Shown: positions 1,325 to 25,500 of the stretch, piece by piece
Layout of the letters: each line of letters opens with the position of its first letter
Numbering within the stretch: the first letter of the stretch is position 1
Assembly: GCA_964471045.1 (NCBI GenBank)
Contig: CAYYER010000001.1
Coordinates: forward strand, 1-32,288
DNA length: 32,288 nucleotides
From: an uncultured archaeon
Lineage (GTDB): Archaea > Aenigmatarchaeota > Aenigmatarchaeia > CG10238-14 > SCSR01
Direction: 5' to 3'
The notes under the pieces: generated by a model
The model's database searches: none
Seen by the model: only the letters and a program-made list of their open reading frames with translations
Told to the model about the DNA's origin: nothing
Position numbers and translations under genes: made by a program

Positions 1325-2458
1325 TTATCCTTTTCTCCCTTCTTTTTCTTTCTCCTTCAAAACTCTGGCTAGCTCGCGAATAAGCCTTCTCACGTATTCA
1401 CGCATTTCATAAACTTCCTTATCGGGAATTTGGTCTATTTTCTTTTGGTCCGCTAATTTCTTCAAATCTTCTATTCGCTTCCAAACATCCCAGTAATAGC
1501 CCTCTACAAGCTTTTTATCGATGAACTCTCGCTTGAAAGCCAAAGGAATCTCTTCCTCTTTCTTAGGCATTTTCTTTAGGGTTTTTAAAGCAGTAATAGC
1601 TGCCTTATAAAGCACTTCGTGCGTCCTCTCCAAAATCTTTTCTCTTTTCCTTAGCTCTAAAGCATTGAGCAAGCTAAACATTTTATTAACAAATTTCTCC
1701 GCTTTATCGATCCACTCGTCTACAAAAGCTCCGCTCACATCCATTAGCTCTTTATGCTCAATCTTTTTCCTGATTTCGATTATTTCTCTCAGCCATTCTG
1801 CATACTCTTGCTCTAGAATACCTGGCTCAACCAAGTATTTCTTAACTTCTTGGTAGGCTTTACTAGGAACAGGAGGAGCCAGACCCATGAACATTAGGAC
1901 AGCTTGCGCAGTATTCAGCATAGCATAATAGCAATCCTCAGCAAGCATTAAGAGCTTAACAGTCTTTGCTCTCATTAGCTTCTTGGGAGCTCCTTCCATG
2001 TAGCTTTCTATAGCTTCTCTTGTAGCAGGAATTCTCCCCATCTCCAAGAGTTTTTTTATTGGCGTGAAGAAGCCTGTATCATAAATCGCAACTCCCTCTT
2101 TTATAAAGTTATAAATTATTGGATGGCAAACTCTTGCATAATCCCAGAATTCGGTTAGAGTATAGCTAGGCTGAACAGAGATTCTTTCGGAAATTTTCTT
2201 GGCCATTTGCTCCAAATCCTCGTCGAGCTTTTCTTGAAATTCTGGAGTTATTTTAAAGCTAGCATCGTCTATGACAACAAAAACATCTACGTCGCTCTTC
2301 GGCTTAAACTCTTCTCTTGCGACAGAACCCATCATCACTATGCACTTGACATACTTTCCATACTTGTCCAAAACCTTCTTCGCAAATTTTTTTACCTTTT
2401 CCAAAACTTCCTCCTTCGTCTCAAGCTTCTCTTCCTTCTTTTTTTCTTTTTTTGCCAT
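1325..2458 (-). CDS. Pol-beta-superfamily nucleotidyltransferase fused to a HEPN-like helical domain (KNTase-like architecture), 377 aa
   Basis: NT signature G-S-x10-D-x-D (MMGSVAREEFKPKSDVDVFVVIDD). Helical C-terminal half carries an R-x4-H motif (RKKIEH, codons at 1754-1771). K/E-rich N- and C-terminal extensions. Its ATG directly follows the TAG of the upstream gene. Confidence 0.7.
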   Translation of the reverse strand: MAKKEKKKEEKLETKEEVLEKVKKFAKKVLDKYGKYVKCIVMMGSVAREEFKPKSDVDVFVVIDDASFKITPEFQEKLDEDLEQMAKKISERISVQPSYTLTEFWDYARVCHPIIYNFIKEGVAIYDTGFFTPIKKLLEMGRIPATREAIESYMEGAPKKLMRAKTVKLLMLAEDCYYAMLNTAQAVLMFMGLAPPVPSKAYQEVKKYLVEPGILEQEYAEWLREIIEIRKKIEHKELMDVSGAFVDEWIDKAEKFVNKMFSLLNALELRKREKILERTHEVLYKAAITALKTLKKMPKKEEEIPLAFKREFIDKKLVEGYYWDVWKRIEDLKKLADQKKIDQIPDKEVYEMREYVRRLIRELARVLKEKEKEGRKG

Positions 2459-2681: not shown

Positions 2682-3530
2682 CTACTCACCTTCCATCTCT
2701 TCCAAAATACCTTTTGGCAACAATTTTTTCATTCTTTCAATTATTTCTTTTGCAAGCTTTAGTGCTTTTTCCAAGTAAGCTGGACTTACTTCCTTAACTA
2801 TTTTATGGTCAATATCCTTCCAGAGCTTATCCAACTCCTCAAACTTTTCTATAAATTCTGGTTCTAATTTTTCCTCCTTCACGAGCTTTTCCAAGAAGCC
2901 TGGGATAGCCTTTTGGTCTGGCTGAGCCTTATAATAATGCATTATTACAGCTTGGCAAGCATCGGTTGCCGCATACCTCAACTCAAAAATCATCGATTTT
3001 AGGTCAAGCTCGATTTTCTTGACTCTTGCTTCGCTAGCCCTTGCCTTTAGCTTTACAGCTTCTTCGCTAGGCGGTATCAAACCCATCTGGAGCATTCTTT
3101 GAACGGGCTTAATAAAACCTGTATCATAAATAGGCAGACCATATCTTAAGAAATTTATTAGCTCTGGGGAGCCAAGCTTTACCCAATTCCAGAATTCTGT
3201 AAGAGTGGTTGTTTGAATGTGCAAATCCTTAAGCTCTTGAGCGATTAGATAAAGCTGAGTATTAACCTTTTGCAAATCCTCCGAGCTTTTTGTGGCCGTA
3301 TCATCCAGAATGACCCAAACATCTATGTCGCTACCCTCCTTCATCATTCCCCTAGCTGCAGAACCGAAGATTAAAACTGATTTAATTATCTCGCCGTACT
3401 GCTTTCTAGCTTCATTGGTAAAAGCTATGACTTTTGAATAAACTTCCTTAGGAGGTTTTTTTACTTCCTTAACTTCTTCGACCAATTTCTCAGCTTTTTC
3501 CAATTCCTCTTCTAGCTTTTCCAAAGCCAT
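2682..3530 (-). CDS. Pol-beta-superfamily nucleotidyltransferase fused to a HEPN-like domain with degenerate R-x4-H motif, 282 aa (paralog of 1325-2458)
   Basis: IFGSAARGMMKEGSDIDVWVILDD NT signature. Shares LTEFW, IYDTGF and MG.IP blocks with the 377-aa protein. The position aligned to the HEPN Arg is Trp (WKDIDH). Confidence 0.7.
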   Translation of the reverse strand: MALEKLEEELEKAEKLVEEVKEVKKPPKEVYSKVIAFTNEARKQYGEIIKSVLIFGSAARGMMKEGSDIDVWVILDDTATKSSEDLQKVNTQLYLIAQELKDLHIQTTTLTEFWNWVKLGSPELINFLRYGLPIYDTGFIKPVQRMLQMGLIPPSEEAVKLKARASEARVKKIELDLKSMIFELRYAATDACQAVIMHYYKAQPDQKAIPGFLEKLVKEEKLEPEFIEKFEELDKLWKDIDHKIVKEVSPAYLEKALKLAKEIIERMKKLLPKGILEEMEGE

Positions 3531-3594: not shown

Positions 3595-4128
3595 TTAGAG
3601 CAAGTAAGGTAGAACTGGATTTAGCAACTGCAAAAGAATAAGATTAAAGATGAAGTTTACTGGGATGGAAATGAAATCCATCTCCCCAAAGCCTTCGTAC
3701 TTCGCAAAATTTTTAAAAGCTAGGACTATCAGCATGATCCAAACCAAGCTCAGGCCCAAGCCTGAAAGGAAATAGATTAAGAGAACTGCTATAAAATCCC
3801 TGGGATTTCCCGGTCCTATGGAAGAAGGGTTGAAGCTCGGATTGTAAACCCATCTATCTCCCAAAATTGCATTGACTATACCTGGAGCTATCAGGAGAAA
3901 AATACAAAAATAAATGCCCGGAAGCAAACCATACTTTAGAGTAACTAGAATGGTTGAAATGGTGGTAAACTCTATTCCTCCTATGGTAGTCGGATTAAGC
4001 CTTCCTATTATGCATTTCTCTATCAAAACGAGCATGCAAGCTATCAAGAAGACTTGCTTAGTCAAAAAGACTAATGCACAAGCTAGGAAAGAAATAGCCA
4101 GGGCTATTTTTGGTTTTGCATCTTCCAT
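3595..4128 (-). CDS. integral membrane protein (177 aa, about 5-6 hydrophobic segments), function unknown
   Basis: Long hydrophobic runs (ALAISFLACALVFL, IACMLVLI, LVWIMLIVLAF, FIFNLILLQLL). ATG at 4128. Confidence 0.55.
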   Translation of the reverse strand: MEDAKPKIALAISFLACALVFLTKQVFLIACMLVLIEKCIIGRLNPTTIGGIEFTTISTILVTLKYGLLPGIYFCIFLLIAPGIVNAILGDRWVYNPSFNPSSIGPGNPRDFIAVLLIYFLSGLGLSLVWIMLIVLAFKNFAKYEGFGEMDFISIPVNFIFNLILLQLLNPVLPYLL

Positions 4129-4195: not shown

Positions 4196-5158
4196 ATGAT
4201 TAAGGTTGGGGTCAATGCTTCTCGCCGCTTGCTCTGGAACTATCCTTTGAGTAAAAGGTTTAAGATTCTCGACATGTTCCTAGAAATTTTTGAGAGATTT
4301 AAAAGGAGGGAAGAGTGGTACGTCGAGCTTGGAATAAGTGCATTCCCAGAAGTGTTTGGAGCTAGCGGAAAGGGGATTAAAAAGCAGGTTGCCCTCAAGA
4401 TCAGAAGAGTTGCCGATAAAAGAGGTTTTAAGCTAACCATTCACGCCCCCCATATAAACGAGAAGCTAATGCCAGATTTAAATCTGTGCTCTTTAAGTAA
4501 GGAGGAAAGGAAGACTTCTCTAAACTATGCGCTTTCGACCATAGATTTGGCTTACTTGCTAGAAGCCGAGTTTGTAACTTTCCATCCAGGCTACATTTAT
4601 AAGGGTTTTAGTCCGGGAAAGGAGAGATTTTTATCCAACTACTTGCATGAAGCAAAAAAATATTTGATTGAAAGCTTAAAAAAACTTGCAAGCCATGCAG
4701 AAAAGAATGGTTTAACCATTACCATAGAAAACATGGAACCAAGGATAGACGTTGGCTATCTATTAACCCATCCCTCTGAAACCAAAGAAGTGGTTAAGGC
4801 TGTTGGGAATAAGTTTTTGAAAATAACCTACGATGTAGCTCATGCTGCACTGGCTGCAAGCTATTACAAGTTTGACCAGGTTAAAAATTTTATGGAAATA
4901 GCCGACCAGGTTGTAAAGCTCCACATTCACGACAACCTTTGCAAGCCAGGACTTTATGGAAGAGTGGATTATGCAGAAGGAATAGGAGACTTGCATCTGG
5001 TTCCGTTAATAGGGAAAGGAAAGGTTCCGAACGAAGCGATTTTAAAAGTTGCGGGAAGGAAAAAGCTCGTGATCTATGAAGTCACTCCTTTAGAAGTTGA
5101 GTTCAGGCTTAGCCTGAAAAAATTAAGAGAAATTTTTGGCATTCCAGACAGCTTGTAG
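4196..5158 (+). CDS. sugar phosphate isomerase/epimerase family protein (xylose isomerase-like TIM barrel)
   Basis: Ordered motifs typical of the family: IHAPH, VTFHPGY, ITIENME, YDVAHA, LHIHDN, VIYEV. Confidence 0.7.
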   Translation: MIKVGVNASRRLLWNYPLSKRFKILDMFLEIFERFKRREEWYVELGISAFPEVFGASGKGIKKQVALKIRRVADKRGFKLTIHAPHINEKLMPDLNLCSLSKEERKTSLNYALSTIDLAYLLEAEFVTFHPGYIYKGFSPGKERFLSNYLHEAKKYLIESLKKLASHAEKNGLTITIENMEPRIDVGYLLTHPSETKEVVKAVGNKFLKITYDVAHAALAASYYKFDQVKNFMEIADQVVKLHIHDNLCKPGLYGRVDYAEGIGDLHLVPLIGKGKVPNEAILKVAGRKKLVIYEVTPLEVEFRLSLKKLREIFGIPDSL

Positions 5159-6949
5159 TTATCTCAACTCTTCTTTCTTCCATTTTTCAGGGGCAACTCT
5201 TTCGGTAGCAGCCCTTCCCAGGAAAGTATGCTCCTCTTCAGGCACATAAACTAAACCTTTCAAAGGGTCTAGAGCGTGCTCGAATATTATTGCTCTTTGC
5301 CTTTCCAAGGAAGCTATTTCGCCAGTAGCAAAACCGTAGAATTCCATCGGTAGTTTTTCGGGCGGTACATCCTTTTCCAAAAATTCAACTATTTTCCTTA
5401 AAGCGATTATGGATTGCTTGATAGGGTCTGGACCTCCTCCTCTCTCAAAAATTATGTAGTAATCTTTCTCATCCTTCCCAAAACCTTTCTTTCTCAGCTT
5501 ATACATTAGCTTGTAAAGGTACAATTGTTGCTCCGAACCCAAAGGAATTGGTATGTGAGCAGGGGCTAGAGGGGAGGGATAGCCTACATGAAGAACGATT
5601 ACAAATTTTCCTGCCTCCTCTGGTAAGCAATCTATTACAACCTCTGGGTCTAATCTTATGCTTAACATATGCTCAAAATCCATCGCTACAGCTAAGCAGA
5701 AGAAACCGGCTTCTTCATTGACTTGCTTAGCCAGATAATACATTTGAATTGGATTCGGTAAGCGGAGCCATTCTTCTATGCCTCTATGAGCCATCGGAGT
5801 TTCTAGAACTAAAGGCATGTTATACTTCTTTATTATCTTTTTTAAATCGTAATAAGTTTTCTTTGGATTCTTATCTTGGTTCAAATGCCCCCATATGTAT
5901 TTAGCAGAAACTGCAGGAACCCATAGATAGCTGTACTTCCTAAAATTCTCATCGTCTATACTTTTCTCCTTTATTCCTTTTTCTCTCAGCCATTCTTCCA
6001 CGCTTTTTTTCTCGCTCCTAGCAAAAAATTCTATGGTTGCATTTACTATGTTATTCCAGAGAGGATCATTAGTTCTTTCCATCCATTTTGCGATGAAATA
6101 GTAAGCTATTCTTTCAGGACCATAATGCAGAGTTCTTGATTGAACATAGTTTAAGAGAGCTGTTCTTATATCGGAGACCAAAACATTTAAACTTCTCTTA
6201 ATTTGTTCATTGACTATTTTTTTCTTGTCAGGTTCCAAACTCTCATAATCTTTTCCAGTTTCTATCTCCCATGTTTCGACTCTATCTAAGATTCTTCCTC
6301 TTAGAATTTCTGCTAAAGGTCTTCCAATAACTTCAATCCATATAAAATCTTGGGGATTGAGACCGCTTGCTTTAAAAGCTCCTTTTATATCCTCTACGCT
6401 TATCCCTTTCTTCTTTTTTAGCCATACATCATATACACATTCAGAAATATCCTCAACCCCTCCTCCTAGAGCCCAATCCAGTAAATCTTTATTTTCTTCT
6501 AAGAATTCTCTTAAAGGATTTCCGAAGAAATCGACTAAAGCTGCTGGCTGTAGATGCCTTTCGAGTAATAAAAATGGGTGAGATTCAGAAGAATGGATTA
6601 AAACATACTCGCTCTTTATTTCTCCAGATTTTTCAAGAATCTCTCTTAGTCTTTCATGCCCAAACTTATAATCCGTTTCTATAGCAGAATCCAACTCAGC
6701 AACCTCAACTCCAAAAGCCCGAGTTTCAGAATGGATTCCATACCTTACCCCTAACTTCCTTATCTTCTCCATATCTTCTTTCAAGTTTGGTGCCTTAAAC
6801 TCAGAGACAGATTCCAAATCTATCTGAACAAACTGCACGCCTTTAGTTATACAATACTCAGCTTTCTTCGCCAATCCTGCATACTGAATTTTTTCGGCTT
6901 CGGGAACTGCCCCGAATATTCCGCTTGAAACTCCGATCAAATAAGCCAT
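5159..6949 (-). CDS. 596-aa protein with remote xylose-isomerase/EndoIV-like TIM-barrel residue pattern interrupted by a large insertion; function unknown
   Basis: Ordered IHSE, LIHSSES, LVLETP, AMDFEHM, VLHVGYP..AHIP, IIFERGGG resembles the metal-ligand order of the TIM-barrel family. About 250 residues separate the second and third motif. Probable ATG at 6949, 1 nt after the stop of the upstream gene. The track's TTG at 6967 is less likely. Confidence 0.5.
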   Translation of the reverse strand: MAYLIGVSSGIFGAVPEAEKIQYAGLAKKAEYCITKGVQFVQIDLESVSEFKAPNLKEDMEKIRKLGVRYGIHSETRAFGVEVAELDSAIETDYKFGHERLREILEKSGEIKSEYVLIHSSESHPFLLLERHLQPAALVDFFGNPLREFLEENKDLLDWALGGGVEDISECVYDVWLKKKKGISVEDIKGAFKASGLNPQDFIWIEVIGRPLAEILRGRILDRVETWEIETGKDYESLEPDKKKIVNEQIKRSLNVLVSDIRTALLNYVQSRTLHYGPERIAYYFIAKWMERTNDPLWNNIVNATIEFFARSEKKSVEEWLREKGIKEKSIDDENFRKYSYLWVPAVSAKYIWGHLNQDKNPKKTYYDLKKIIKKYNMPLVLETPMAHRGIEEWLRLPNPIQMYYLAKQVNEEAGFFCLAVAMDFEHMLSIRLDPEVVIDCLPEEAGKFVIVLHVGYPSPLAPAHIPIPLGSEQQLYLYKLMYKLRKKGFGKDEKDYYIIFERGGGPDPIKQSIIALRKIVEFLEKDVPPEKLPMEFYGFATGEIASLERQRAIIFEHALDPLKGLVYVPEEEHTFLGRAATERVAPEKWKKEELR

Positions 6950-6950
6950 A

Positions 6951-8753
6951 CTAACCGGGCACCCCAAAACTTTTCTTCAAGTATCTAACTATTCTTGCAA
7001 AATTCCCTCCCGTCTCCCTTTGATGATATTTTGCAAGCCTATGGTGCATGGCAAACTCGTAAGGTCCGACTGCTCTAAAGAATCGAAGCTCTAGGCCAAA
7101 AGTTGCGAAGAACTTTCCTATACCCAGTCTAATTTTCTTACCTAATTCCTTAAACCTTTTCCTAGATTCCTCAGCTTTCTTAAGCCTCTCTTCTAACTTT
7201 CTTTCTTTCTCTTCTTTTTCTATCTCTTCGAGAGTTTTGTAAACTTCCTTATACCCTTCTTCGACTATTTTTTCTATCGAGAGAATTTTCCCCTCTTTTT
7301 CCCCCATCTCTCCAAGCATCCTGCTTATGTACTGTTCCAACTGCTTATCCCTTGCTATAAGCTCCAAACAATTAACGAGTATCAAATTCTGAGTTCTGGT
7401 TGCGGCATACAAATTCTCTATCCACAAATCTTCGACTTGAGCACCATTGGGCAATCTTAGAACAGTTCTTTCCATCGGAATGCAAATAAAAGTGAAGTAT
7501 GGACTAAAAACCCAGGGTTCTTTTCCGCCCAGAGCTGGCAAAGATTTCCTGAATTGGTCCAAAAGCATTTCCCTAGCTTTATACAAGTCGTAGGCTGTTA
7601 TCTTAACTCCATATTCTTTTTCTATTATTGGGACAAATGCTCTGACAACCCTATCTATGGAAGGTTCTTGAGGCAATCCAGAAACTTTTTCGTCCCATTT
7701 TTCCCCCAAATGCTTTTTAATCTCCAAAATCTCGCTCCTAGTAAAGCCTGCTTTTGAAGCTGGAATTTGGTCGAAGTATTCTCTAGTAATCTTATACTTT
7801 TCAGCAACCTGGAATGGCTTCCATGCCCAAAGGGTGACCTTATCCACAGAAATTGCTTGGGCGTCTGGCCTCATATGAGCAGCCTTAAGTATGCCCGCTC
7901 TTCCTTCTGGCATGCTAAGAGCTTCTGTAATCATCTTATACCTTGCTATAGTTGGCTTTAGCATTTCTCTATATTCTTCTATGGAAGCTTTCCTCATTTC
8001 AACCACGCTTAAAATTCTTCTATACCTTTGCTTAACGTTTTCCTTGAACATCTCTCTCCATTCTTTATAAAGCTTGTTTTTAGTGGCTAGAACAACGCCT
8101 TGAGCCTCAGAAACCCCATATTTTTTTGCAATTTCTTTTGGGTCTGTATCCTCGTCGGTTAGCTTCATGAAATCGGCTATGATGGTAGGCCACCTTGGGG
8201 CAATTAGCTTTAAGGCTATTCCTTCCCCTGTATGCACATCAACCTGATCTATAAAAATTGCTTTAAGAGTTTGTTCCCCCTCTCTCACAAGCTTTTCTCC
8301 CTCTTCCTTCTTTCCTTCTTTAATCAGCCTCTTTCCCTTTTCGATTTTAAGAAAATGATTCATGTATTCCCTATACTTTCTCAAATCGTGCAAGGCTAGC
8401 TCAAAATCTGAAATGGCTCTCGCAACGCTAGCTAAACCTTCTTTAATCCTTGCTTCCAAAGCTTCTTTTTGCCTCAGAGTCATCTCGTAGTATTCCCTAA
8501 AGACAGGGGATACAAAAATGCTTTCTTCTATCTTTGCGGTAAAGAATCCCCATTTGGGTAGCTGAAAGGAGAGAGCATAAAAAACTTCGCTAACTTTTCC
8601 GAGCGAGGAAGTAAAATCTAGGAGCATTTCTCCCTCGTAGGGAACAGCATTTATAACTTCTCCTGGCTCGAACCTAAGCTTCGCTTCAGGTCTTTCTGGA
8701 GGAATAACAAACCATGGTCTTGGTGCAGGAAATTCTGGAATGATCACTGGCAT
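6951..8753 (-). CDS. 600-aa soluble coiled-coil-rich orphan protein
   Basis: Probable ATG at 8753 (MPVIIPEFPAPRPW...); the track start 8789 is a TTG. Pro-rich N-terminus, heptad-like K/E-rich stretches near residues 100-180 and in the C-terminal 80 aa. No TM segment, no NTPase or nuclease motif I recognise. Confidence 0.6.
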   Translation of the reverse strand: MPVIIPEFPAPRPWFVIPPERPEAKLRFEPGEVINAVPYEGEMLLDFTSSLGKVSEVFYALSFQLPKWGFFTAKIEESIFVSPVFREYYEMTLRQKEALEARIKEGLASVARAISDFELALHDLRKYREYMNHFLKIEKGKRLIKEGKKEEGEKLVREGEQTLKAIFIDQVDVHTGEGIALKLIAPRWPTIIADFMKLTDEDTDPKEIAKKYGVSEAQGVVLATKNKLYKEWREMFKENVKQRYRRILSVVEMRKASIEEYREMLKPTIARYKMITEALSMPEGRAGILKAAHMRPDAQAISVDKVTLWAWKPFQVAEKYKITREYFDQIPASKAGFTRSEILEIKKHLGEKWDEKVSGLPQEPSIDRVVRAFVPIIEKEYGVKITAYDLYKAREMLLDQFRKSLPALGGKEPWVFSPYFTFICIPMERTVLRLPNGAQVEDLWIENLYAATRTQNLILVNCLELIARDKQLEQYISRMLGEMGEKEGKILSIEKIVEEGYKEVYKTLEEIEKEEKERKLEERLKKAEESRKRFKELGKKIRLGIGKFFATFGLELRFFRAVGPYEFAMHHRLAKYHQRETGGNFARIVRYLKKSFGVPG

Positions 8754-8792
8754 AATATAAATTTGTTTTTTTGAAATCTTATTATTCAAGAT

Positions 8793-8957
8793 TTACAGCC
8801 AGAGCAAAACTAAGCCAATTATCATTAAAACTATTCCAAACAATACTCCTGCTCTCTGCATTTCAAAAGGTTGATAAGTAGGATGGGCAAAAGGAAATTT
8901 TACAACTATCAACAAGCCAAGAAAGAATAAGAATCCGCCAGCTATTTTGTTTATCAT
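8793..8957 (-). CDS. 54-aa two-TM hairpin membrane protein (below the ORF-track length cutoff)
   Basis: My translation of the minus strand: MINKIAGGFLFFLGLLIVVKFPFAHPTYQPFEMQRAGVLFGIVLMIIGLVLLWL*. ATG 8957-8955 overlaps the TGA 8956-8954 of the upstream small gene (ATGA). TAA at 8795-8793. Confidence 0.5.
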   Translation of the reverse strand: MINKIAGGFLFFLGLLIVVKFPFAHPTYQPFEMQRAGVLFGIVLMIIGLVLLWL

Positions 8958-9163
8958 AATTTAAGTAACTCCCAGCCAAGATAAATAAATATCGGTCCGA
9001 AGAAAAGCTGGAACAAGAAGTTTTTCTGATTTCCGACATAAACCAAGCCAAAGATAAAAACGCTTCCCAAAAACATTAAGACTGCTCCCAAAAGCTTAGA
9101 AACTAGAGGCGGTAAGCTTACTAACTTTACAAATTCTAAGATTTTTCCAGGATTTTCGAGCAT
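8954..9163 (-). CDS. 69-aa two-TM hairpin membrane protein
   Basis: MLENPGKILEFVKLVSLPPLVSKLLGAVLMFLGSVFIFGLVYVGNQKNFLFQLFFGPIFIYLGWELLKL. I prefer the internal ATG at 9163, because the track start at 9238 would overlap the divergent gene starting at 9223 and remove the promoter gap. Confidence 0.5.
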   Translation of the reverse strand: MLENPGKILEFVKLVSLPPLVSKLLGAVLMFLGSVFIFGLVYVGNQKNFLFQLFFGPIFIYLGWELLKL

Positions 9164-9183
9164 GAATAAAATTTCATGCAAAA

Positions 9184-9192
9184 ATTTATAAC
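9184..9192. promoter_or_regulatory. putative shared TATA element (ATTTATAAC / GTTATAAAT) in the 59-nt divergent gap
   Basis: Centre is about 25 nt from ATG 9163 (minus) and about 35 nt from ATG 9223 (plus). It is the only strong TATA-like word in the gap. Confidence 0.35.
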
Positions 9193-9222
9193 TTTTTAGT
9201 TTCTTAAAACCAAATTTTAAAT

Positions 9223-9777
9223 ATGCCAGTATTTGCAAGGACCAAGCTAGTTATACACGATGATTGTTTAGCTACTGCTCCAGGAAGCGTTTTGCCTGGA
9301 GTTCCTTACTTGCTTTTAACCTACGAGGGTCCAAACCCCCAGCGCTTGTACGAAAAGATAAAGGAGCTTTTTGCAACGATTTTTAGGCACGATCCTGGGG
9401 AGCTTCAAGAAAGGGATTTTGTTTGGGATAAGAGTGAAGCAGGAGAAAAGTTTAGGGTAAGGTTTGAGCTCATAAAGGATATGGACAGATTTTCCTTCAT
9501 TCAGGTAATAGTAACCCTGCAAGGTGAAGCAAGGCCTAGCAAGGAATTTGGGAAGGAGGGAAAGGCGAAGATAAGGATAGAGGGAAGGATAAGGACCGAA
9601 TATCCTCAGGATACTCTCTGGCAAAGAAGCTTATTCTATGAAATGTTTAGGGTTTTGTACCATAGGCTAATCTACGAAGAGAAAAGGCAGAGATATAAGA
9701 ATCAGTGCAGGGAATGGCTTTTAAGGTTTCAAGACGAACTAAAGGCTTTCCTTAACATCTTGCCAAGGGAGAGGTAA
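9223..9777 (+). CDS. uncharacterised protein, tandem paralog A (184 aa)
   Basis: Shares DDCLA, Y.GP.P, ERDF.WD, IRI.GR.RTEY, QRS and YH.L.YEE blocks with the next gene. Stop TAA overlaps the next ATG (TAATG at 9775-9779). Confidence 0.7.
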   Translation: MPVFARTKLVIHDDCLATAPGSVLPGVPYLLLTYEGPNPQRLYEKIKELFATIFRHDPGELQERDFVWDKSEAGEKFRVRFELIKDMDRFSFIQVIVTLQGEARPSKEFGKEGKAKIRIEGRIRTEYPQDTLWQRSLFYEMFRVLYHRLIYEEKRQRYKNQCREWLLRFQDELKAFLNILPRER

Positions 9778-10292
9778 TGCCACGCTGGGTTTTTGAGGAC
9801 GATTGCCTAGCTCCAGAAAGAACCTTAACCATAGAGTACAGCGGCCCAGATCCTTTTAGAGTTTGTAGAGTTTTAAGAGATATGCTCGGGAGAATTTTTC
9901 AAGTCGAAACCATAGATTTGTGGGAAAGGGATTTTAGGTGGGACATAAGCTCAGACCCAAGACCTTTTTACATGAGGATGTACGTGAATAAAGGAATAGA
10001 TGCAAGAACTAGGATGATGGTCGAAATTACTGTTCAGGGTCTGCAACCATCTGACCCAAGTAAAAAAGGGAAGGTAACTATTAGAATAAGCGGGAGGTTA
10101 AGAACCGAGTACAATTTAAAATCGTTCTTTCAGCGTTCTCCTCTCTACAAAGCTTTTGTATGGGTCTATCACAAGCTTTTCTATGAAGAGGTGAAGAGAA
10201 GTTATATTCATCTGTGTAATAGGCTTATCGAAGAATTGCACTTAGAATTAAGGGCTTTATTCAAATTGCCCGTATCCGAGAGGGTAAGATAA
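9777..10292 (+). CDS. uncharacterised protein, tandem paralog B (171 aa)
   Basis: See paralog A. GGAGAGGT Shine-Dalgarno-like motif just upstream. TAATG overlap with the next gene at 10290-10294. Confidence 0.7.
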   Translation: MPRWVFEDDCLAPERTLTIEYSGPDPFRVCRVLRDMLGRIFQVETIDLWERDFRWDISSDPRPFYMRMYVNKGIDARTRMMVEITVQGLQPSDPSKKGKVTIRISGRLRTEYNLKSFFQRSPLYKAFVWVYHKLFYEEVKRSYIHLCNRLIEELHLELRALFKLPVSERVR

Positions 10293-10543
10293 TGGGAATA
10301 TTTTCGAGGATAAAGGGCATCTTTAGAAGGAAGAAAGAGGAGCCAGTAGAAGAATTGCCTGAGATTCCGGAGGAAAAGCCCTTGGAAAGCTTGGAGCCGG
10401 CAACCCTGGAAAATCTAAAGGCAAAAATGGATTTGATCCTAACCCAAATGGAAAGCTTAAAGATCCAGAATGAAACCTTGATGGAAAGACTGAAAATTAT
10501 AGAAAAACTGTTGATAGAAATAAGAAAGCTAGCGGTTAGCTGA
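10292..10543 (+). CDS. 83-aa protein: N-terminal basic amphipathic helix (MGIFSRIKGIFRRKK), acidic Pro-rich linker, C-terminal coiled coil
   Basis: Translation from the track. GAGAGGGT SD-like motif 7 nt upstream. Hydrophobic residues at positions 3, 4, 7, 10 and 11 with flanking R/K. Heptad-like L/I/M spacing in LKAKMDLILTQMESLKIQNETLMERLKIIEKLLIEIRKL. Confidence 0.6.
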   Translation: MGIFSRIKGIFRRKKEEPVEELPEIPEEKPLESLEPATLENLKAKMDLILTQMESLKIQNETLMERLKIIEKLLIEIRKLAVS

Positions 10544-11058: not shown

Positions 11059-11556
11059 TTAGAGTTCATCTCTACAAGTTTCGCATAACCATTTTCCTTC
11101 AACCTTTTTCAGCCCGTCATAAGCTTGACCGCAAGACTCACAAATCCCAATTTCCAAATCTTTTTCTTGATCTTCGGCTATTATTATAGGCTCGACTTTC
11201 CTCAATTTTAAGACATAGCCTGTGCCTAAAAAGTCGAAGTTAAAGAATTGAGCCAATTTTCTTGCCAGCTCTATATCTTTCCCAAAAAGCCACCAGAAAA
11301 GCTCGTTTATATAACAATAAGGACAAACCATCACATCGAAAGTTCTTTTACACCTTATGCATTTTACCTTTTTTTCTGGATTGCTCGATAAGAAGAATTT
11401 TGAAAATTTTTCGTGAAAAGATTCGAATTCCTTCCTAAGCTCTGGCTTATCCGAAAACAAGAATTTTTTGACATCCTTTGCTAAGCAATCTACGCAAATG
11501 AAATTGAACAAAGGTTCCAAGCACAATTTGCAAATCTGCGTTTCCCTTGCTTCCAT
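11059..11556 (-). CDS. Cys-rich protein with six CxxC motifs (three predicted zinc-ribbon sites), 165 aa
   Basis: CKLC..CVDC, CIRC..CPYC and CESC..CETC are arranged as three pairs. Confidence 0.65.
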   Translation of the reverse strand: MEARETQICKLCLEPLFNFICVDCLAKDVKKFLFSDKPELRKEFESFHEKFSKFFLSSNPEKKVKCIRCKRTFDVMVCPYCYINELFWWLFGKDIELARKLAQFFNFDFLGTGYVLKLRKVEPIIIAEDQEKDLEIGICESCGQAYDGLKKVEGKWLCETCRDEL

Positions 11557-11655: not shown

Positions 11656-12207
11656 ATGAAATCTAAAAATTTTTTAGACGAAACGAATAGGTTTATAATC
11701 TCAGAACTTCTGAAGAATGGAAGGATAAAGCTTACAGAGCTGGCAAAAAAGCTTAAAGTAACTCCTGCTGCAGTTAAAGAAAGAGTTGATAGGCTGATAA
11801 AAAAGAAGGTCATAACCATAAGCGCTTTGATAAATCCAGAAAGCCTTTATCCCTTGAGCGCTTGCATTGGAGTAGAGGCTGATGCTGACGGGGTTAATTT
11901 GATAGTAAGAAAGCTGAGAAATTGTCCTTTGGTCTTTCATTTAGCAAAAACTTCGGGAAACCATAACTTAATAATCAACATGGTTGCTAGGGATATCGCC
12001 CAGCTCGAAGAATTTTTGAACAAGCAAATAAGGTCAGAGCCTGGAATTAGGCATGTGGAAGTAAACATAAGCAATTCAATCATAGTCCCAAAGTATTTGC
12101 CTCTAAGATTTTTTTATCCCTATGACCCAGAATATGCACCTTGTGGCTTGAGGTTTGATGATGAAGAAAGATGTCCAAGCTGTCCAGCGTTCGAGAAAAA
12201 GAAATAA
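11656..12207 (+). CDS. Lrp/AsnC-family transcriptional regulator with a Cys-containing C-terminal extension (183 aa)
   Basis: N-terminal HTH (IISELLKNGRIKLTELAKKLKVTPAAVKERVDRLIKKKVI), then a RAM-like domain, then about 35 extra residues ending PCGLRFDDEERCPSCPAFEKKK (C-x10-C-x2-C). Confidence 0.75.
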   Translation: MKSKNFLDETNRFIISELLKNGRIKLTELAKKLKVTPAAVKERVDRLIKKKVITISALINPESLYPLSACIGVEADADGVNLIVRKLRNCPLVFHLAKTSGNHNLIINMVARDIAQLEEFLNKQIRSEPGIRHVEVNISNSIIVPKYLPLRFFYPYDPEYAPCGLRFDDEERCPSCPAFEKKK

Positions 12208-12763: not shown

Positions 12764-12793
12764 TTTTTAACTACCTTAATCTCTGTGAGGAGC

Positions 12794-13957
12794 ATGGGAA
12801 AGAAATATGAAGTCGGGATAATAGGAGGAGGTCCAGCAGGGAGTACTTGTGCTTATTATCTAGCTAGAAAAGGCGTTGATGTGATAATATTCGACCATAC
12901 TCAACCCAGGGAAAAAGTTTGTGGAGGCATCTTAAGCTCAACTCTTTTATCGAGATATACCATTCCTGTCGACATAATCGAAAGGAATTTAAATTTTTGC
13001 GAGGTGTATTCTCCCACTTACAAGAAGATCAGATGGACTTATAAAAAAACTCATGGTTCGGTTTCAAGAAAAAAATTTGATTGGTTTTTACTAGAAAAGG
13101 CGCTGGACGAAGGAGCTGAATGGAAAAAGCTCAAGGTAAACGACGTAGAAGAGAAAAGAGGGAGGTTTATACTTTCTACTAAAGAGGGGGAGTTTAAAGT
13201 TGAAAACGCTGTAGGGGCTGGCGGAGTCAATGGAATCTTAAGAAAGAAAAAAATAGGAGCGTTCCCGACAAAGCATCTTAGCAAGACTTATGACCTCAAG
13301 TTGAAGTTTGAAAAGGAATATGTAGATGAGCATTTTGAAGATGGTTGGTATCTGCTTTTCCTCGACGATAGATACGTTGGAAAAGGTTATGGCTGGCTTG
13401 TCCCAAAAAAGGATTATGTTTTAGTAGGATTGGGGTGTGAGCTAGAATACAAGGGAAATCTTAAAAAATCTTTGAAAGAATTGCTCCAGGTTCATCCCCT
13501 CCTTAAGGAAAAAATTGGAAAACCGAAGTCTGTAAAAGAGAGAGCTGCACTAATAGTTAGTCCAAAAACAGCAGAATTCTTCAAATCGAAGCATTGCGAT
13601 AAGAATTGGGTAATAATAGGAGAAGAAGGCGGCTTTGTCCATCCTTTAGAAGGAGATGGTCTTACTTACGCGATGATAACAGGAGAACTTGCTGCAAAGC
13701 TTTACATTGCTAATTCTTCCTTCGAAGATTTTGATAAGAAATGGGTTGAGGAATTTGGCGAAAAAATAGTAATTCCTAAGGATGGTATAGAAAACTTTTA
13801 CAACAAAAGCGTTTTGGACTTTCTTTTTGATATAGCTGAAGGGAAACCAGAACTAATCGACCAACTCTTTGAAGGTAAGCTAGAACTTAAAACTTTCCTA
13901 GCTGCCATCAAGAAAAAAACCGAAATGAATAATTCTAAGAAAGAGTCTGATAGTTAA
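12794..13957 (+). CDS. geranylgeranyl reductase family FAD-dependent oxidoreductase (archaeal lipid saturation type)
   Basis: N-terminal dinucleotide fold VGIIGGGPAGSTCAYYLARKGVDVIIFD followed by KVCGGIL, and later GEEGGFVHPLEGDGLTYAM. ATG at 12794 preferred over the track's GTG at 12785. Confidence 0.8.
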   Translation: MGKKYEVGIIGGGPAGSTCAYYLARKGVDVIIFDHTQPREKVCGGILSSTLLSRYTIPVDIIERNLNFCEVYSPTYKKIRWTYKKTHGSVSRKKFDWFLLEKALDEGAEWKKLKVNDVEEKRGRFILSTKEGEFKVENAVGAGGVNGILRKKKIGAFPTKHLSKTYDLKLKFEKEYVDEHFEDGWYLLFLDDRYVGKGYGWLVPKKDYVLVGLGCELEYKGNLKKSLKELLQVHPLLKEKIGKPKSVKERAALIVSPKTAEFFKSKHCDKNWVIIGEEGGFVHPLEGDGLTYAMITGELAAKLYIANSSFEDFDKKWVEEFGEKIVIPKDGIENFYNKSVLDFLFDIAEGKPELIDQLFEGKLELKTFLAAIKKKTEMNNSKKESDS

Positions 13958-15182: not shown

Positions 15183-15914
15183 ATGAAATTTTGCATACTC
15201 TACGACCCTGATAAGCCTTCCCTAGCAAAAAGAATGTTTGAAGAAACCGTTAAGCACAAAGAGATGATCGAAAAGGTTTGCGATTTTTGGGTTGGGACTA
15301 CCAAAGGCTCTTCCAAAGCCATAAGCTTCTGGTTAAAAAGGCTTGAAGAGGAAGGTTTGGAGGAAAGATATTTATTTCCAGGGCAAGTTTGGCATGCCTT
15401 GGCTGGAAAGCACGCCAAATACATCCTAAGACCAGAGTTGCTGAACAGAACTCCTTCTTTCAAAAGCTCTCTTGCTCGCTTGTACACAAAACTCGGAAAG
15501 CTTGCAACCAGATTTTTATATCCTTATTCTCCTCCTTATGAATTGGATTTTGGCTACCTAATCCTGGGGCCAGGGACGAGCGTCGGAGATTTTACAGGAG
15601 CTGCTAGGATAAGCGATGAAGATGCTTTAGCTTGCGTAGAAAATTATTTGGAGAAGAATAAAGCTTGTTATGGAGTTTACATAGAAGGAGGTTCTGGGGC
15701 GAGGATACCAGTGAGTAAGAGGATAGAATTAATAAAAAAAGCTAGAGAGATTTTGCCGAGCGATAAGGTTCTCCATGCAGGCGGGGGAATCAGGAGCCTG
15801 GAGGAACTAAAACTCTTGCTCGATTTAGGAACCAAGCCAGTAATAAGCACTCATTTCGAAGAAAAACCAAAAGATATTTATAGGTTTGCTAAAGAAGTGT
15901 ATAAAAGGGTATAA
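15183..15914 (+). CDS. geranylgeranylglyceryl phosphate synthase (PcrB/GGGPS family)
   Basis: TIM-barrel family motifs YIEGGSGA and HAGGGIRS near the C-terminus. Typical size (243 aa). Stop overlaps the egsA ATG (TAATG at 15912-15916). Confidence 0.75.
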   Translation: MKFCILYDPDKPSLAKRMFEETVKHKEMIEKVCDFWVGTTKGSSKAISFWLKRLEEEGLEERYLFPGQVWHALAGKHAKYILRPELLNRTPSFKSSLARLYTKLGKLATRFLYPYSPPYELDFGYLILGPGTSVGDFTGAARISDEDALACVENYLEKNKACYGVYIEGGSGARIPVSKRIELIKKAREILPSDKVLHAGGGIRSLEELKLLLDLGTKPVISTHFEEKPKDIYRFAKEVYKRV

Positions 15915-21205: not shown

Positions 21206-22573
21206 ATGAACAAAGAGAAGGAAGGGTTAAACAGCATATTAGAAACGGTAAAAAAAGAAAAGGTAAAAAGAGTCCATTTTCAGTTCGTCGACATTGTCGG
21301 CAACTTAAAAAGCGTTAGCGTACCTACGGCCGAAAAAAACTTAAAGGATTTTGAAGATTATCTGGAGAATGGTGTTGGTTTTGATGGTTCTTCGATAGAA
21401 GGTTTTGTCAGAATAGCTGAAAGCGACTTGGTTCTAAAGCCTGATCTATCGACCTTTAAAATTTTCCCTTGGAGAATAAACGAGATAAAAGAAGGGAGGA
21501 TTATTTGCGAAGTCTTAAAACCTGGGGGATTTCCTTTTGAAGGCGACCCAATTTATGCTCTAAAAAGATGCGAGAAAAAGCTGGAGAGAAAGCTTGGCAA
21601 AGGAACAACCTATCAAGTAAGCTCCGAGATCGAGTTTTTCCTTTTTGAGATGAAAGATGATATAGTAACCAGGCCTTTGAAAACTGATGTCTACGGATAT
21701 TTCGACTATGCTCCCTTACACAAAACGACTCTAGCTTTGAACAGAGCTATAGATTACATGCAAGCTCTAGGCCTTACAGTCTGTAAAGGGCACCATGAGG
21801 TAGCGAAGGGTCAGTATGAAATAGATTATAAGCATGATTCTGCCTTAAGGTCTGCCATAAACTTCGTGAACTATAAGCTTTGCGTTAAGACCGCAAGCGC
21901 TGAAAGTGGCCTGCTCGCAAGCTTCATGCCAAAACCGATTTATGGAGTCTATGGCTCGGGGGCCCATACCCATCAAAGTCTTATGAAAAATGGGGAAAAC
22001 TTGTTCTTCGATGAAGAAGACGAATATCATCTTTCTTCCTTAGCAAAGCATTTCCTCGCTGGACAATTAAAATGCGTTAAAGAAATAGTTGGAGTGACCA
22101 ATCCTACCGTCAATTCTTATAAAAGACTAGTAGTTGGTTATGAAGCGCCCGTTTACATCTGCTGGGGAACTAGGAATAGGTCTGCCCTAATAAGGAAGCC
22201 AGAATACTTTCCTGGAAAAGAAAAGGAAACTAGGCTAGAAGCAAGATGGCCAGACCCTTCTATGAATCCTTTCCTTGGCTATGCTGTAATGCTTGAAGCT
22301 GGCTTGTACGGAATAGACAAGAAAATAGAACTTCCCGATCCTATAGAAGAAGACGTTTATCATTTCGACGATGCAAAGTTAAAGAAGTTCTACATAGAGA
22401 CTTTGCCCAGGTCTTTGGGAGAGGCTATGGAACTTACGAGAAAGAGTAAAGTAGTTGAAAATGCTTTGGGTAGCTTCATCCAAAAAAAGCTCTATGAAAT
22501 GCATGAAAAACAATGGGATGAGTATAGGACCCAAGTTCATCCATGGGAAGTTGAAAGGTATTTATTCATCTAG
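21206..22573 (+). CDS. glnA: glutamine synthetase, type I
   Basis: FDGSSIEGF, EIEFFLF, GSGAHTHQSL, NSYKRLVVGYEAP and RNRSALIR motifs in canonical order. 455 aa. Confidence 0.93.
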   Translation: MNKEKEGLNSILETVKKEKVKRVHFQFVDIVGNLKSVSVPTAEKNLKDFEDYLENGVGFDGSSIEGFVRIAESDLVLKPDLSTFKIFPWRINEIKEGRIICEVLKPGGFPFEGDPIYALKRCEKKLERKLGKGTTYQVSSEIEFFLFEMKDDIVTRPLKTDVYGYFDYAPLHKTTLALNRAIDYMQALGLTVCKGHHEVAKGQYEIDYKHDSALRSAINFVNYKLCVKTASAESGLLASFMPKPIYGVYGSGAHTHQSLMKNGENLFFDEEDEYHLSSLAKHFLAGQLKCVKEIVGVTNPTVNSYKRLVVGYEAPVYICWGTRNRSALIRKPEYFPGKEKETRLEARWPDPSMNPFLGYAVMLEAGLYGIDKKIELPDPIEEDVYHFDDAKLKKFYIETLPRSLGEAMELTRKSKVVENALGSFIQKKLYEMHEKQWDEYRTQVHPWEVERYLFI

Positions 22574-25500
22574 CCTTTAATCTCATTATTTCGGCATAAA
22601 GTTCATTCAAGACATTCGTATAAGCTTCCTTCCCTTCCTCGATCCTATCCATTATAGCTTCTAATCTTCGAGTAACTTCTTCGCTTATGTATTCTCCATA
22701 ATTTTTGATCAAGAAATTATAAACCTTGAAGCCGAGCTTTGTGTTAACTAGCTTATTCCTCCTTTCGACCACATATTTTCTTTCCAACAAGACTTGAACA
22801 ATTTTCGAATAGGTGCTAGGCCTTCCAATCTTTCTCTCCTTCATCAAGCCAACAACCTCTCCTTGCGAAAATGGCCAAGCTTTCGGAGCTCTTTTTATTC
22901 TTGCAAAGATTATTCTGTAAAGTCCGCTTTCCACCCTTCTCTTCACTTCAAAATGAACTAGCCTGTTAAAACCTTCCTTAATAATTTCGACCGCTAATTC
23001 CAAGCTTGTGTCATTCCCAAAAACCTTAATTTTTAGAATTTGATACTTAACTTCGATTTCTCTCATTTGGCTTGCCATAAACCTTTTGAAAATCAAATCG
23101 TAAAGCATGCAATGCTCCTCACTCAAAACTTTAACAAACCTTATCCTACCAGAGAAAATCAAATCCTTAAGTTTGGCTGGATCTATGGCTCTAGTCGGTC
23201 TAATGCATTCATGAGCCCCTTCCTTTCTATAGCTTCTTCCAACAAAAAATTCTTTCCCAAACTTCTTTTGAATATAATCTTTTGCCAGGTTAATTCCAAA
23301 GGTTGAAACGCTCGTAGAATCTGTTCTATGATAGGTTATTAGCCCGCATTCAAACAAATCTTGAGCAATTCTCATGGTTTGGTTTACCGAAAAATTCAGC
23401 TTTAGGGAAGCATCCTTGAGCAAAGCATCCGTAGTATAAGGAGGTAGTGGATAAACTTTCCTAATTTCTTCCTTCACGACTTCAACTTTTGCTCTCTCTT
23501 CTCTAGCCTTTTTGTAAATTTCCCTGAAATCGAATTCAAGCTTGGGTTCTTCTATTCTTATCGAAAGATTGTTTTCTAACTTTGCATTCAAGACAATTTT
23601 TTTCTCCCAGCTTTCTTTAGTCCTTTCGATTATCCATCCTAGAACCGGGGTTTGAACCCTTCCTGCAGAGAGCTTTCTGTTTTTGAAAACTTTCCAAAGA
23701 ATCTGGCTTAATTCAAATCCTATCCATCTATCTTCTATCCTTCTTACTATCTGGGCTTCGACCAGGCTAAAGTTTATTCCTCTCTTGTTGGCAATCGCAT
23801 TCAGTATAGCTTTCTTAGTTATCTCATGAAACTCTAACCTATAAATTTTGCTATTTATTGGGTAAAGGCTGCAGTACAAATCGTAAGCAATCTTTTCCCC
23901 TTCTGCATCAGGGTCTGTTGCTATAAAAATTAGATTAGTCTCTAGTGCTATCTTCCTTAAGGAACCGACTATCCTTTCTTTCGAAACTATTTCCAAACTT
24001 TTACATTTTGGACAAGAGTCGTATTCGGTAAACTGATGTCCGCACTTTAAACATTTCTTGATGAAATCGTAGATCGGATAAAAATTGTTTTCTTTTTTAA
24101 GCACTCCATGAAAACCTTCTGAAAAGATTAAATCGTAGAGATGACCCATCGTTGCAACTATGTTCAATATATACTCTCCAGTACTCGTTTCGTAGACAGT
24201 TAAATTACCGACTAACCTTTTACTCGGCTTTCCGAAAAATTTTGCGATGGTCTTTGCTTTTGTTGGAGATTCCACTATCAAAAGAGCGACTTTGATGTAA
24301 TCCTTGATTCGCTTCGAAACTTTACCTTCTGAAATTTCTTTTATTAGCTTCCTATCTTCATCTACTTGCTTAAACCATCTAGCAAGCTTTTTAAGTTCAA
24401 AACTTTCCCAGCTTATGTCTTCGAGGAAATAGCTTAGCTTTTCAACAAGCCCATTAAAAGCTTTTCTATCGTCGACCAGCAGAATGCTAGCTCCTCTTGA
24501 GATTCCACCAGCAAATAGGCGAGAGGCTCTTCCAGAAGCTTGGATGTAAGCAACTGGGTCCGAAATTATCAAATAAAACTCGTTAGCCTTTTCCTTTAGG
24601 CTTATCGTCTCATCCTTTCTAATTTTTTCTATCAAATCTCTTGTAAGAAGTTTTTCCAAAAATTTTTGAGTTTTGATTATAATCTTTTGAGCAAAACCTT
24701 CAAAACCTTCTAGGCTTAAGTTATTCGAACAAGCTTCCTCAATCTTCTGAATCATTTCTTTGCTCAAGGGAATTATTTTCTTAAGCTGTGCGATTAGATC
24801 ATCGATTTTTTCTTTTGTCTTTTCGTCGAAAAATTCTCTTATGTTCTTAATCAAAGTCAAAAGCTTAGTCGGGTTGAATTCCTTTGCACTCAACCTTATC
24901 TCAAACCTTGGTACGCCCGCAAAAATTACATACCTTATTCTTTCTGGTAAATCGATTCCCCTTGCTAAAGGAGACCGAAAGCTCGCAACCCCAACCAAGC
25001 AATCGTAGAATCCATTCTCGAAATTTTCCAGAATATCTTCTTCCATTTTCTCGTAAACATAAGAATTAATTCCATTAGTCTTCAAGTATTCAGCCAGATT
25101 CTTTGCATAAGCTTTCCCCTTTTCCATCGGAACGAAAATCAAGCAACCGGAACCGAATTTCCTGATTATTTCGAGAGTATCTTTTTCAAGTTCCTTACTC
25201 TCTTTATAAAAATCTCTTATATTCCTTAGGAATTGGGGTAAATAGCCCAATTCGAAGCCCAAAAGCTCTTTAAAAAGTTTTACTCTCTTCGTCCTCTTAG
25301 CTTTTGTAGTAGCACCCGAAACTACGAGTATCCCAATCTTATTCCTTAGCTTAAACTCTTCAACCCTTTTCCTTATTCTCTCTATTTCTTTCGAAATTTT
25401 CTTCGTCGAAGCTTTCATCTTCTTGAGCTTGTTAAGCTCTTTTCTCAATTCTAAAAGTCTTAGAGAATCGTTTACTATTTCTTCTGAAAAACCTAGACAA

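Follow-up and report, generated by a model that had tools for sequence, protein, structure and literature searches.

Gene content and probable shared promoter of the cluster

A divergent cluster of seven genes, here called A to G, was analysed at positions 5159-10543 of a DNA stretch of 32,288 nucleotides (nt), referred to throughout as the window, which is a contig from a metagenome-assembled genome (MAG) of a DPANN archaeon, Candidatus Aenigmatarchaeota. The minus strand carries A (5159-6949; 596 amino acids, aa), a probable metal-dependent enzyme that appears to be a split xylose-isomerase-like TIM barrel with an insertion of ~220 aa (residues ~150-365), B (6951-8753; 600 aa), a basic alpha/beta protein with helical hairpins of 45-65 residues, C (8793-8957; 54 aa), a hairpin of two transmembrane segments, and D (8954-9163; 69 aa), a small hydrophobic protein with one or two such segments. 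The plus strand carries E (9223-9777; 184 aa), a basic protein modelled as a six-stranded sheet with a 46-residue C-terminal helix in a helix-grip-like arrangement, its paralog F (9777-10292; 171 aa), and G (10292-10543; 83 aa), which consists of a basic amphipathic N-terminal helix, an acidic, proline-rich linker and a C-terminal coiled coil. An AT-rich intergenic region of 59 nt (9164-9222) separates the two strands. Read directly from the DNA, the sequence shared by D and C is ATGA, only 1 nt lies between B and A, and E is joined to F and F to G by TAATG overlaps of one base each. The GC content of the window is ~38%, with uniform composition and no compositional island; neither tRNAs nor Rfam families were found in it, and a scan for sigma-70 promoters and terminators, whose model is bacterial while the host is an archaeon, returned nothing informative.

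The same seven products, none with a Pfam family, are present in the gene calls of two independent public assemblies of the same organism, and the sequence of A is identical to that of NCBI locus DRP00_01960 (Candidatus Aenigmatarchaeota archaeon). The open reading frames (ORFs), overlaps and AT-rich gap listed in a preliminary description of the window, made from the sequence alone, were thus confirmed both in the DNA and by independent gene calls. These genes are more than chance ORFs: full-length homologs of A, B and E number in the hundreds, and purifying selection acts on C, D and G (ratio of nonsynonymous to synonymous substitution rates 0.01-0.08 for C, 0.10-0.20 for D and 0.08 for G). 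When all seven proteins were compared with Pfam, NCBIfam, PADLOC and PHROGs, nothing reached threshold, and sequence and profile searches of the PDB with A, B, E/F, G and an insertion-free core of A gave no match, which bears out the earlier statement that the genes are uncharacterised; no description of the cluster was found in the literature. Transmembrane segments are absent from A, B, E, F and G, and signal peptides from all non-membrane products, so a complex formed by them would be cytoplasmic. The isoelectric points of B, E and F lie at 9.2-9.5.

Between the operons, at 9179-9199, lies a dyad-symmetric TATA box, CAAAAA-TTTATAA-CTTTTTAG, flanked on each side, when read on the transcribed strand, by a purine-rich run that resembles a transcription factor B recognition element (BRE). 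Its centre (~9188) is 25 nt from the ATG of D and 35 nt from that of E. The usual archaeal spacing between TATA box and transcription start is ~26 nt; with this spacing assumed, the mRNA of D would be leaderless and that of E would have a leader of ~9 nt. The motif CTTTTTW or ACTTTTW was present within 90 nt upstream of the start of E in 28 of 61 loci, nearly always at -30 to -43, against a background rate of 0.1 per 90 nt, and the full palindrome of A-run, TATA and T-run recurs in many loci of the window's clade. To judge from the sequence, the D-C-B-A and E-F-G operons probably share this one palindromic BRE-TATA-BRE promoter. The element, with its position-conserved half, supports the bidirectional promoter that had been suggested for the 59-nt gap, and sharing it would favour co-regulation of the two operons.

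Conservation of the layout across the phylum

Loci were collected from two sides. A set seeded with B comprised 80 genome loci, in which the identity of B falls as low as 33% and whose labels are all either Aenigmatarchaeota or 'uncultured archaeon', and a set seeded with E comprised 80 loci in metagenome contigs; neighbours were counted over the loci with enough room on the contig. The layout in which E and F point away from (D-)C-B-A was kept in >90% of ~140 loci, whichever side was used as seed and down to 33% identity. In the B-seeded set, A directly followed B in 63 of 69 loci (median B-A junction 1 nt), E/F lay divergent from B within 1 kb in 65 of 70 loci and within 4 kb in 67 of 70, and both E and F were present in 75-76 of 80 (median E-F gap 4 nt). 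In the metagenome set, B was divergent upstream of E in 58 of 59 loci, and an F-like gene was found downstream of E in 70 of 70. The adjacency of E/F and B (93-96%; 58/59 in the reciprocal direction) is above every other adjacency except that of B and A. The small genes follow the same pattern: in 70 of 76 loci the ORF next upstream of B is C-like, with ~53 aa and two transmembrane segments, more than one small transmembrane ORF is present there in 35 of 76 (the extra one being usually D-like and ~47 aa long), and a G-like ORF comes after F in at least 50 loci. Far from being scattered, which by the preliminary description would have refuted its reading, the families stay co-localised in the same divergent layout across the phylum.

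The flanks hold housekeeping genes (YchF, TFIIB, ABCE1, GatD and CTP synthase), a setting that favours a module of the core genome and speaks against a mobile island of effector or defence genes. The cluster belongs to the core genome, is specific to the phylum Aenigmatarchaeota and is no mobile element; all of its families appear restricted to this phylum, B being the one for which the restriction was tested exhaustively.

Two observations were made on individual loci. The whole cluster is present in two copies, on two contigs of MAG JZ-2_201705_bins_269 (L014 and L052), with B identities to the window of 56% and 44%, which may reflect a real duplication or a mixed bin. An ORF of ~260 aa (M..KIVLKLGGS..) lies between F and G in three loci (L057, L060 and L065); by eye it looks like an amino-acid kinase or isopentenyl-phosphate kinase.

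Protein families of the cluster

For A, 287 homologs were found, and all those with names come from Aenigmatarchaeota; one is labelled 'sugar phosphate isomerase/epimerase' by JGI. AP_endonuc_2 (PF01261; gathering score 31.1 bits) was the only recurrent Pfam match in the family, seen in 4 of 19 full-length members and always below threshold: the A protein of the window gave no match to PF01261, and the best family member stayed below the gathering score at 22.9 bits (E = 8e-5). Once residues ~149-365 had been excised, 6 of 12 members matched (best E = 6e-6), the N-terminal part (37-125) aligning with profile positions 8-94 and the C-terminal part (404-466) with 115-173, in collinear order. Ten residues are invariant in 65 members with identities down to 25% (H73, H119, H355, E383, D424, H454, P458, H465, E502 and R503), eight of them His, Glu or Asp, and H427 is present in 63 of the 65. 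The order and spacing of these His, Glu and Asp residues parallel those of canonical AP_endonuc_2 proteins from the same phylum (H65, H105, E147, D176, H179, H204/206, H215 and E244), in a correspondence that was drawn by eye, the automated profile alignments being off-register and not significant. We take the invariant His/His/Glu/Asp/His/His/His/Glu set to resemble the three-metal site of endonuclease IV; the NCBIfam model nfo did not match A. Extra domains were considered for the long homologs and rejected, since only the length of the insertion varies, through expansions; its C-terminal half (~271-355) is highly conserved and holds the invariant H355. A is, we think, fairly likely to be a derived, split xylose-isomerase-like barrel with an intact metal site. 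Of the earlier reading of A as TIM-barrel-like with a large insertion, the sub-threshold AP_endonuc_2 matches and the conserved ligand pattern speak in favour, and a match at the gathering score is missing. Peptide modification of the MNIO/DUF692 type, brought to mind by the combination of a TIM barrel, small proteins and an invariant Cys pair in E/F, was rejected: there is no DUF692 match, and C, D and G have no Cys.

B had been called a coiled-coil orphan; it is no orphan, and it is more than a coiled coil. It belongs to a phylum-wide family of 391 homologs (identities of 45-99% among the 120 matches listed, nearly all full length), whose named members are all from Aenigmatarchaeota. In an exhaustive search with a hidden Markov model over 1.84 billion representative proteins, 230 clusters matched the B profile at E<=1e-3, and the only distant match with a name was again from Aenigmatarchaeota; IMG/VR contained no relative of B. 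The AlphaFold2 model (alignment of 93 sequences; predicted local distance difference test, pLDDT, 86.4; predicted template modelling score 0.78) is that of an alpha/beta protein with long helical hairpins, its helices spanning 86-145, 149-175, 216-280 and 508-551 and its strands 300-313, 419-433 and 439-454. Foldseek found nothing in the PDB at E<=1e-3, the best matches being coiled-coil stalks with a template modelling score (TM-score) below 0.2, and BFVD yielded no meaningful match. Among the 93 sequences, about 35 columns are invariant, including F167-D169-D172-T175, R187-W188-P189-T190, W414-S417-P418 and Y565-E566. The isoelectric point is 9.2 and no transmembrane segment is present, and hhalign of B against E/F found no E-like module in B. 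B is thus a conserved protein whose modelled fold is apparently new, and not a low-complexity coiled-coil orphan. A relation to the maturation proteins of single-stranded RNA phages, suggested by recurrent BFVD matches, was rejected at TM-scores of ~0.1. Three of 15 B homologs match PF21017 (PHA01746-like) weakly, with a best E of 3.5e-4.

E has 330 homologs, none with a Pfam domain. E and F share 35% identity (E = 3e-31), so they are the tandem paralogs they had been taken for; both occur throughout the phylum, which makes the duplication ancient and a heterodimer plausible. No Pfam family was found in 96 E/F members, and a PDB profile search with E/F gave no match. In the AlphaFold2 model of E (pLDDT 81.4), two short strands and one helix precede four long strands and the C-terminal helix of 46 residues. 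Its Foldseek matches in the PDB are weak (E 1e-4 to 1e-3, TM-scores 0.2-0.33) and fall to Cyt1Aa/volvatoxin and to SRPBCC/START/Bet v1/Ups1-PRELID proteins, all of them folds of sheet plus helix that interact with lipids, ligands or membranes. No superposition of E on SRPBCC/START/Bet v1 structures reached a TM-score of 0.5, and no profile match to these was obtained; the helix-grip resemblance of E and its paralog F is weakly indicated, a lead and not a membership. C15, which follows the first strand, and C162, in the C-terminal helix, are invariant in all 96 aligned E/F sequences, and the pair may be linked as a disulfide, bind a metal or be a site of modification.

The remaining three proteins would provide the link to the membrane. 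C and D had both been described as having two transmembrane segments, which is clear for C (1-27 and 31-54); D has one long hydrophobic stretch and a weaker second one. BLASTP found no similarity between them, and the idea that they are paralogs was dropped. Residue-by-residue reading of L070 showed a D-like and a C-like hairpin fused upstream of B into one four-transmembrane protein of ~110 aa (9540-9872), and an ORF of ~111-112 aa with 4-5 transmembrane segments occupies the same position in L075, L076 and L079. In L070 C is kept with B, as the D-C fusion, where A and E/F are absent. A subclade without C and D (L038, L039, L041, L044 and L046) has other membrane-anchored proteins nearby: at the position of G, L039 (7558-7842) and L041 (8575-8898) encode a protein of 94-107 aa whose acidic N-terminus is followed by a coiled coil and, at the C-terminus, by a transmembrane anchor. 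That one anchor is replaced by another in this subclade is the best indirect evidence that membrane tethering matters.

In G, residues 3-13 have a hydrophobic moment of 0.76, and the net charge is +6 over residues 1-15 and -9 over 16-40. The family has a three-part build (a basic amphipathic or hydrophobic helix, a variable Pro/Glu-rich linker and a C-terminal coiled coil), with the C-terminal motif ...LNERI.NIEKMV.EIY.MAKS conserved. In the earlier comparison with PspA/ESCRT-III, the amphipathic helix and the coiled coil hold good, but the homology does not: PspA_IM30 and Snf7 matched none of 28 G members, which hit generic coiled-coil families only, as did a PDB profile search of G, and the protein is far too short. 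Its N-terminus resembles membrane-targeting sequences in general, of the SepF/MinD/FtsA type. The hydrophobic and amphipathic features of the C, D and G sequences are conserved, and the membrane association proposed at the outset is credible in view of the frequent C-like ORF, the D-C fusion, the helix of G and the tail-anchored protein at the G position.

A possible membrane-tethered complex, its alternatives and its likeness to known systems

The reading we prefer, held tentatively and with more doubt than confidence, is that of a membrane-tethered cytoplasmic complex in which E/F would present a substrate associated with lipid, A would act on that substrate and B would be the scaffold. The products would assemble on the cytoplasmic face of the membrane, anchored by the hairpins of C and D and by the amphipathic N-terminal helix of G. 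B would serve as a scaffold or adaptor, translationally coupled to A, and catalysis would fall to A alone, as a highly derived TIM barrel of the xylose-isomerase/endonuclease-IV type with a putative multi-His/Asp/Glu metal site. E and F would probably form a heterodimer through their long C-terminal helices and would bind and present a hydrophobic or amphiphilic ligand. On a membrane-associated substrate, which could be the head group of a lipid or else a glycan or precursor linked to a lipid, A would carry out metal-dependent phosphoester hydrolysis or sugar isomerisation. Physical assembly, membrane location, substrate class and chemistry are what we infer from the features described above. 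A narrower version, in which E/F as a START/Cyt-like pair would hand lipids, possibly scavenged from a host, to A as a derived three-metal TIM-barrel phosphoesterase, is improbable.

Several results weigh against the proposed complex. With hhalign, A aligned off-register and without significance both to the neighbouring canonical TIM barrel and to a profile built from 11 canonical AP_endonuc_2 proteins of Aenigmatarchaeota; hmmsearch of that 11-protein profile against A cores was not significant, and PDB profile searches with A or its insertion-free core did not recover a TIM barrel. A is therefore a putative member of AP_endonuc_2. The TM-scores of E are only 0.2-0.33, and its conserved residues are largely polar or aromatic, with no obvious greasy cavity. 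B, E and F are basic and would be equally suited to binding nucleic acid. The gene set also comes apart in places: L053 holds B-A only, L070 the fused D-C protein and B only, with E/F and A absent, and L093 E-F-G only. Finally, the region as a whole is syntenic, with a pair of NTP_transf_2(+HEPN) genes following A in 83% of loci, YchF beyond F in 58% and TFIIB nearby in 68%, so that the E/F-B adjacency of 93-96% is only moderately above background.

This synteny, together with the loci in which E-F-G occurs without B (L093) or B without E/F (L053 and L070), is what would be expected if an enzyme module of C/D-B-A and a separate E-F-G module were functionally unrelated neighbours, kept together by regional synteny and shared promoter space. 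We think this rather unlikely, since the E/F-B adjacency, with its 58/59 reciprocal count, tops all others but B-A, the short intergenic region is shared and carries a dyad-symmetric promoter element, and the families appear restricted to one phylum (tested exhaustively for B). Also unlikely is a scaffold with a structural or membrane-shaping role, for instance a lineage-specific apparatus of the cytoskeleton, of division, of vesicles or of host contact, in which B, the helices of E/F and the coiled coil of G would polymerise or form a lattice on the membrane while A is accessory or moonlighting. Such an apparatus would suit the 45-65-residue helical hairpins of B, whose sole structural echoes are coiled-coil stalks and BAR domains, the membrane-targeting-type helix and conserved coiled coil of G with its weak FtsB/DivIC/FlaC-type matches, and the universal presence and high conservation of the module among the housekeeping genes of one phylum. 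Neither an NTPase nor a known polymerising fold is present, however; the Foldseek coiled-coil matches stay below a TM-score of 0.2, B is largely compact alpha/beta with a confident globular model, and the invariance of the active-site residues of A argues that catalysis is central and not vestigial.

A nucleic-acid module, in which A, as a phosphodiesterase akin to endonuclease IV, would work on DNA or RNA while the basic B, E and F proteins would bind nucleic acid, and which might extend to membrane-tethered uptake or salvage of host nucleic acids, perhaps with the adjacent nucleotidyltransferases, is decidedly improbable. The likeness of the ligand set of A to the three-metal site of endonuclease IV, the isoelectric points of 9.2-9.5, the two NTP_transf_2(+HEPN) genes after A and weak SMC/JetABC-type coiled-coil echoes in B are in its favour, but no nucleic-acid-binding domain, helicase or ATPase was detected, A does not match nfo, C and D are too small for a conduit, and basic proteins are common in this low-GC genome (the adjoining canonical TIM barrel has an isoelectric point of 9.4). 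A mobile or viral island, or one for defence against viruses, is scarcely credible. The weak signals that could be cited for it are the PHA01746-like matches in 3 of 15 B members, the BFVD matches to phage maturation proteins at TM-scores of ~0.1, and a PADLOC match of B to PbeC (17.5 bits, E = 2.8e-4), which was the only one obtained for the whole cluster against PADLOC-DB and amounts to no meaningful defence match; these fall in low-complexity coiled-coil segments of B. Against it stand the chromosomal context among housekeeping genes, fixed throughout the phylum, the absence of B relatives from IMG/VR, the uniform composition and the lack of any visible integrase or repeat.

Most DPANN archaea are uncultured; they depend on hosts and have tiny genomes, where conserved gene clusters without a known function are frequent. 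Little is known of the way in which their envelopes are built and maintained. According to one paper (PMC11035636), it is not clear which host lipids such a symbiont takes up. If E/F did hand lipids to A, the module would be a membrane-associated machine of a new kind, confined to Aenigmatarchaeota, and a lineage-specific apparatus for lipid acquisition or remodelling in a DPANN symbiont, built on the fold of B. Its retention in almost every Aenigmatarchaeota genome points to a likely important, lineage-defining function, and with one enzyme, one new fold and few partners it is a bounded target for study, as well as a phylum-specific genomic marker.

Other genes were noted around the cluster, and some of them may be connected with it. 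A canonical xylose-isomerase-like TIM barrel (4196-5158, plus strand; Pfam AP_endonuc_2 at 2e-30, E = 1.8e-13 to MJ1311, PDB 3WQO) is convergent with A and ends one base before its stop; it is found at this place only in the same species (L001), and 10 other loci have a different canonical AP_endonuc_2 member at ~5.6 kb from B. The presence of a canonical barrel near A and B may be a functional link or a coincidence. The tandem NTP_transf_2 proteins (2682-3530 and 1325-2458, minus strand), the first also with a HEPN-like C-terminus, might belong to the module; one of the pair (up282) has identities of 55-91% in most loci and is more conserved there than A or B. In the window the pair is displaced from A by the TIM-barrel gene and by a gene for a 177-aa protein with multiple transmembrane segments (3595-4128). 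At 2-5 kb from the cluster are a FAD-dependent oxidoreductase (12785-13957, plus strand), which has generic FAD-binding Pfam matches only and could be geranylgeranyl-reductase-like, and a gene with a weak match of 24.5 bits to the PcrB family (15183-15914, plus strand), the family of geranylgeranylglyceryl phosphate synthase; with these two genes, the organism may keep some lipid biosynthesis. A gene convergent to G (11059-11556, minus strand), conserved in that place in 19 loci, stands beside an Lrp/AsnC regulator (11656-12207); the product of the former, 165 aa long, matches no Pfam family and contains 12 cysteines, arranged as CxxC pairs. The largest ORF of the window encodes 1200 aa (22566-26168, minus strand).

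The combination of genes matches no described system; no component files into a characterised family, and the fold of B has no solved relative. Individual parts do bear comparison. G shares with PspA, Vipp1 and ESCRT-III a basic amphipathic N-terminal helix plus a coiled coil, a helix that is not specific to those proteins, but it has 66-140 aa against their ~220 and is without their hairpin-based five-helix core. E resembles the SRPBCC proteins (START, Bet v1, PYR/PYL, CoxG and Ups1-PRELID; Foldseek E 1e-4 to 1e-2, TM-scores 0.17-0.28) in having an antiparallel, long-stranded sheet followed by a long C-terminal helix; it differs in having one short helix in place of the usual pair and a 46-residue terminal helix much longer than the sheet. 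The best Foldseek matches of E are Cyt1Aa and volvatoxin A2 (E 1.5e-4 to 6e-4, probability 1.0, TM-scores up to 0.33), which are sheet-plus-helix proteins that insert into lipid bilayers; unlike these toxins, E is without the two helix-hairpin layers, the signal peptide and the protoxin features, and it is a conserved member of a paralog pair in a housekeeping context. The closest parallel for A is the AP_endonuc_2 superfamily, with endonuclease IV, sugar-phosphate isomerases/epimerases, the CbiR phosphodiesterase and MJ1311, with which it shares the collinear halves and, as judged by eye against canonical members from the same phylum, the order and spacing of the invariant His/His/Glu/Asp-x2-His/His/His/Glu residues, whereas A differs from that superfamily in the ~220-aa insertion between presumed strands 4 and 5, in being twice the usual length and in always being translationally coupled to B.

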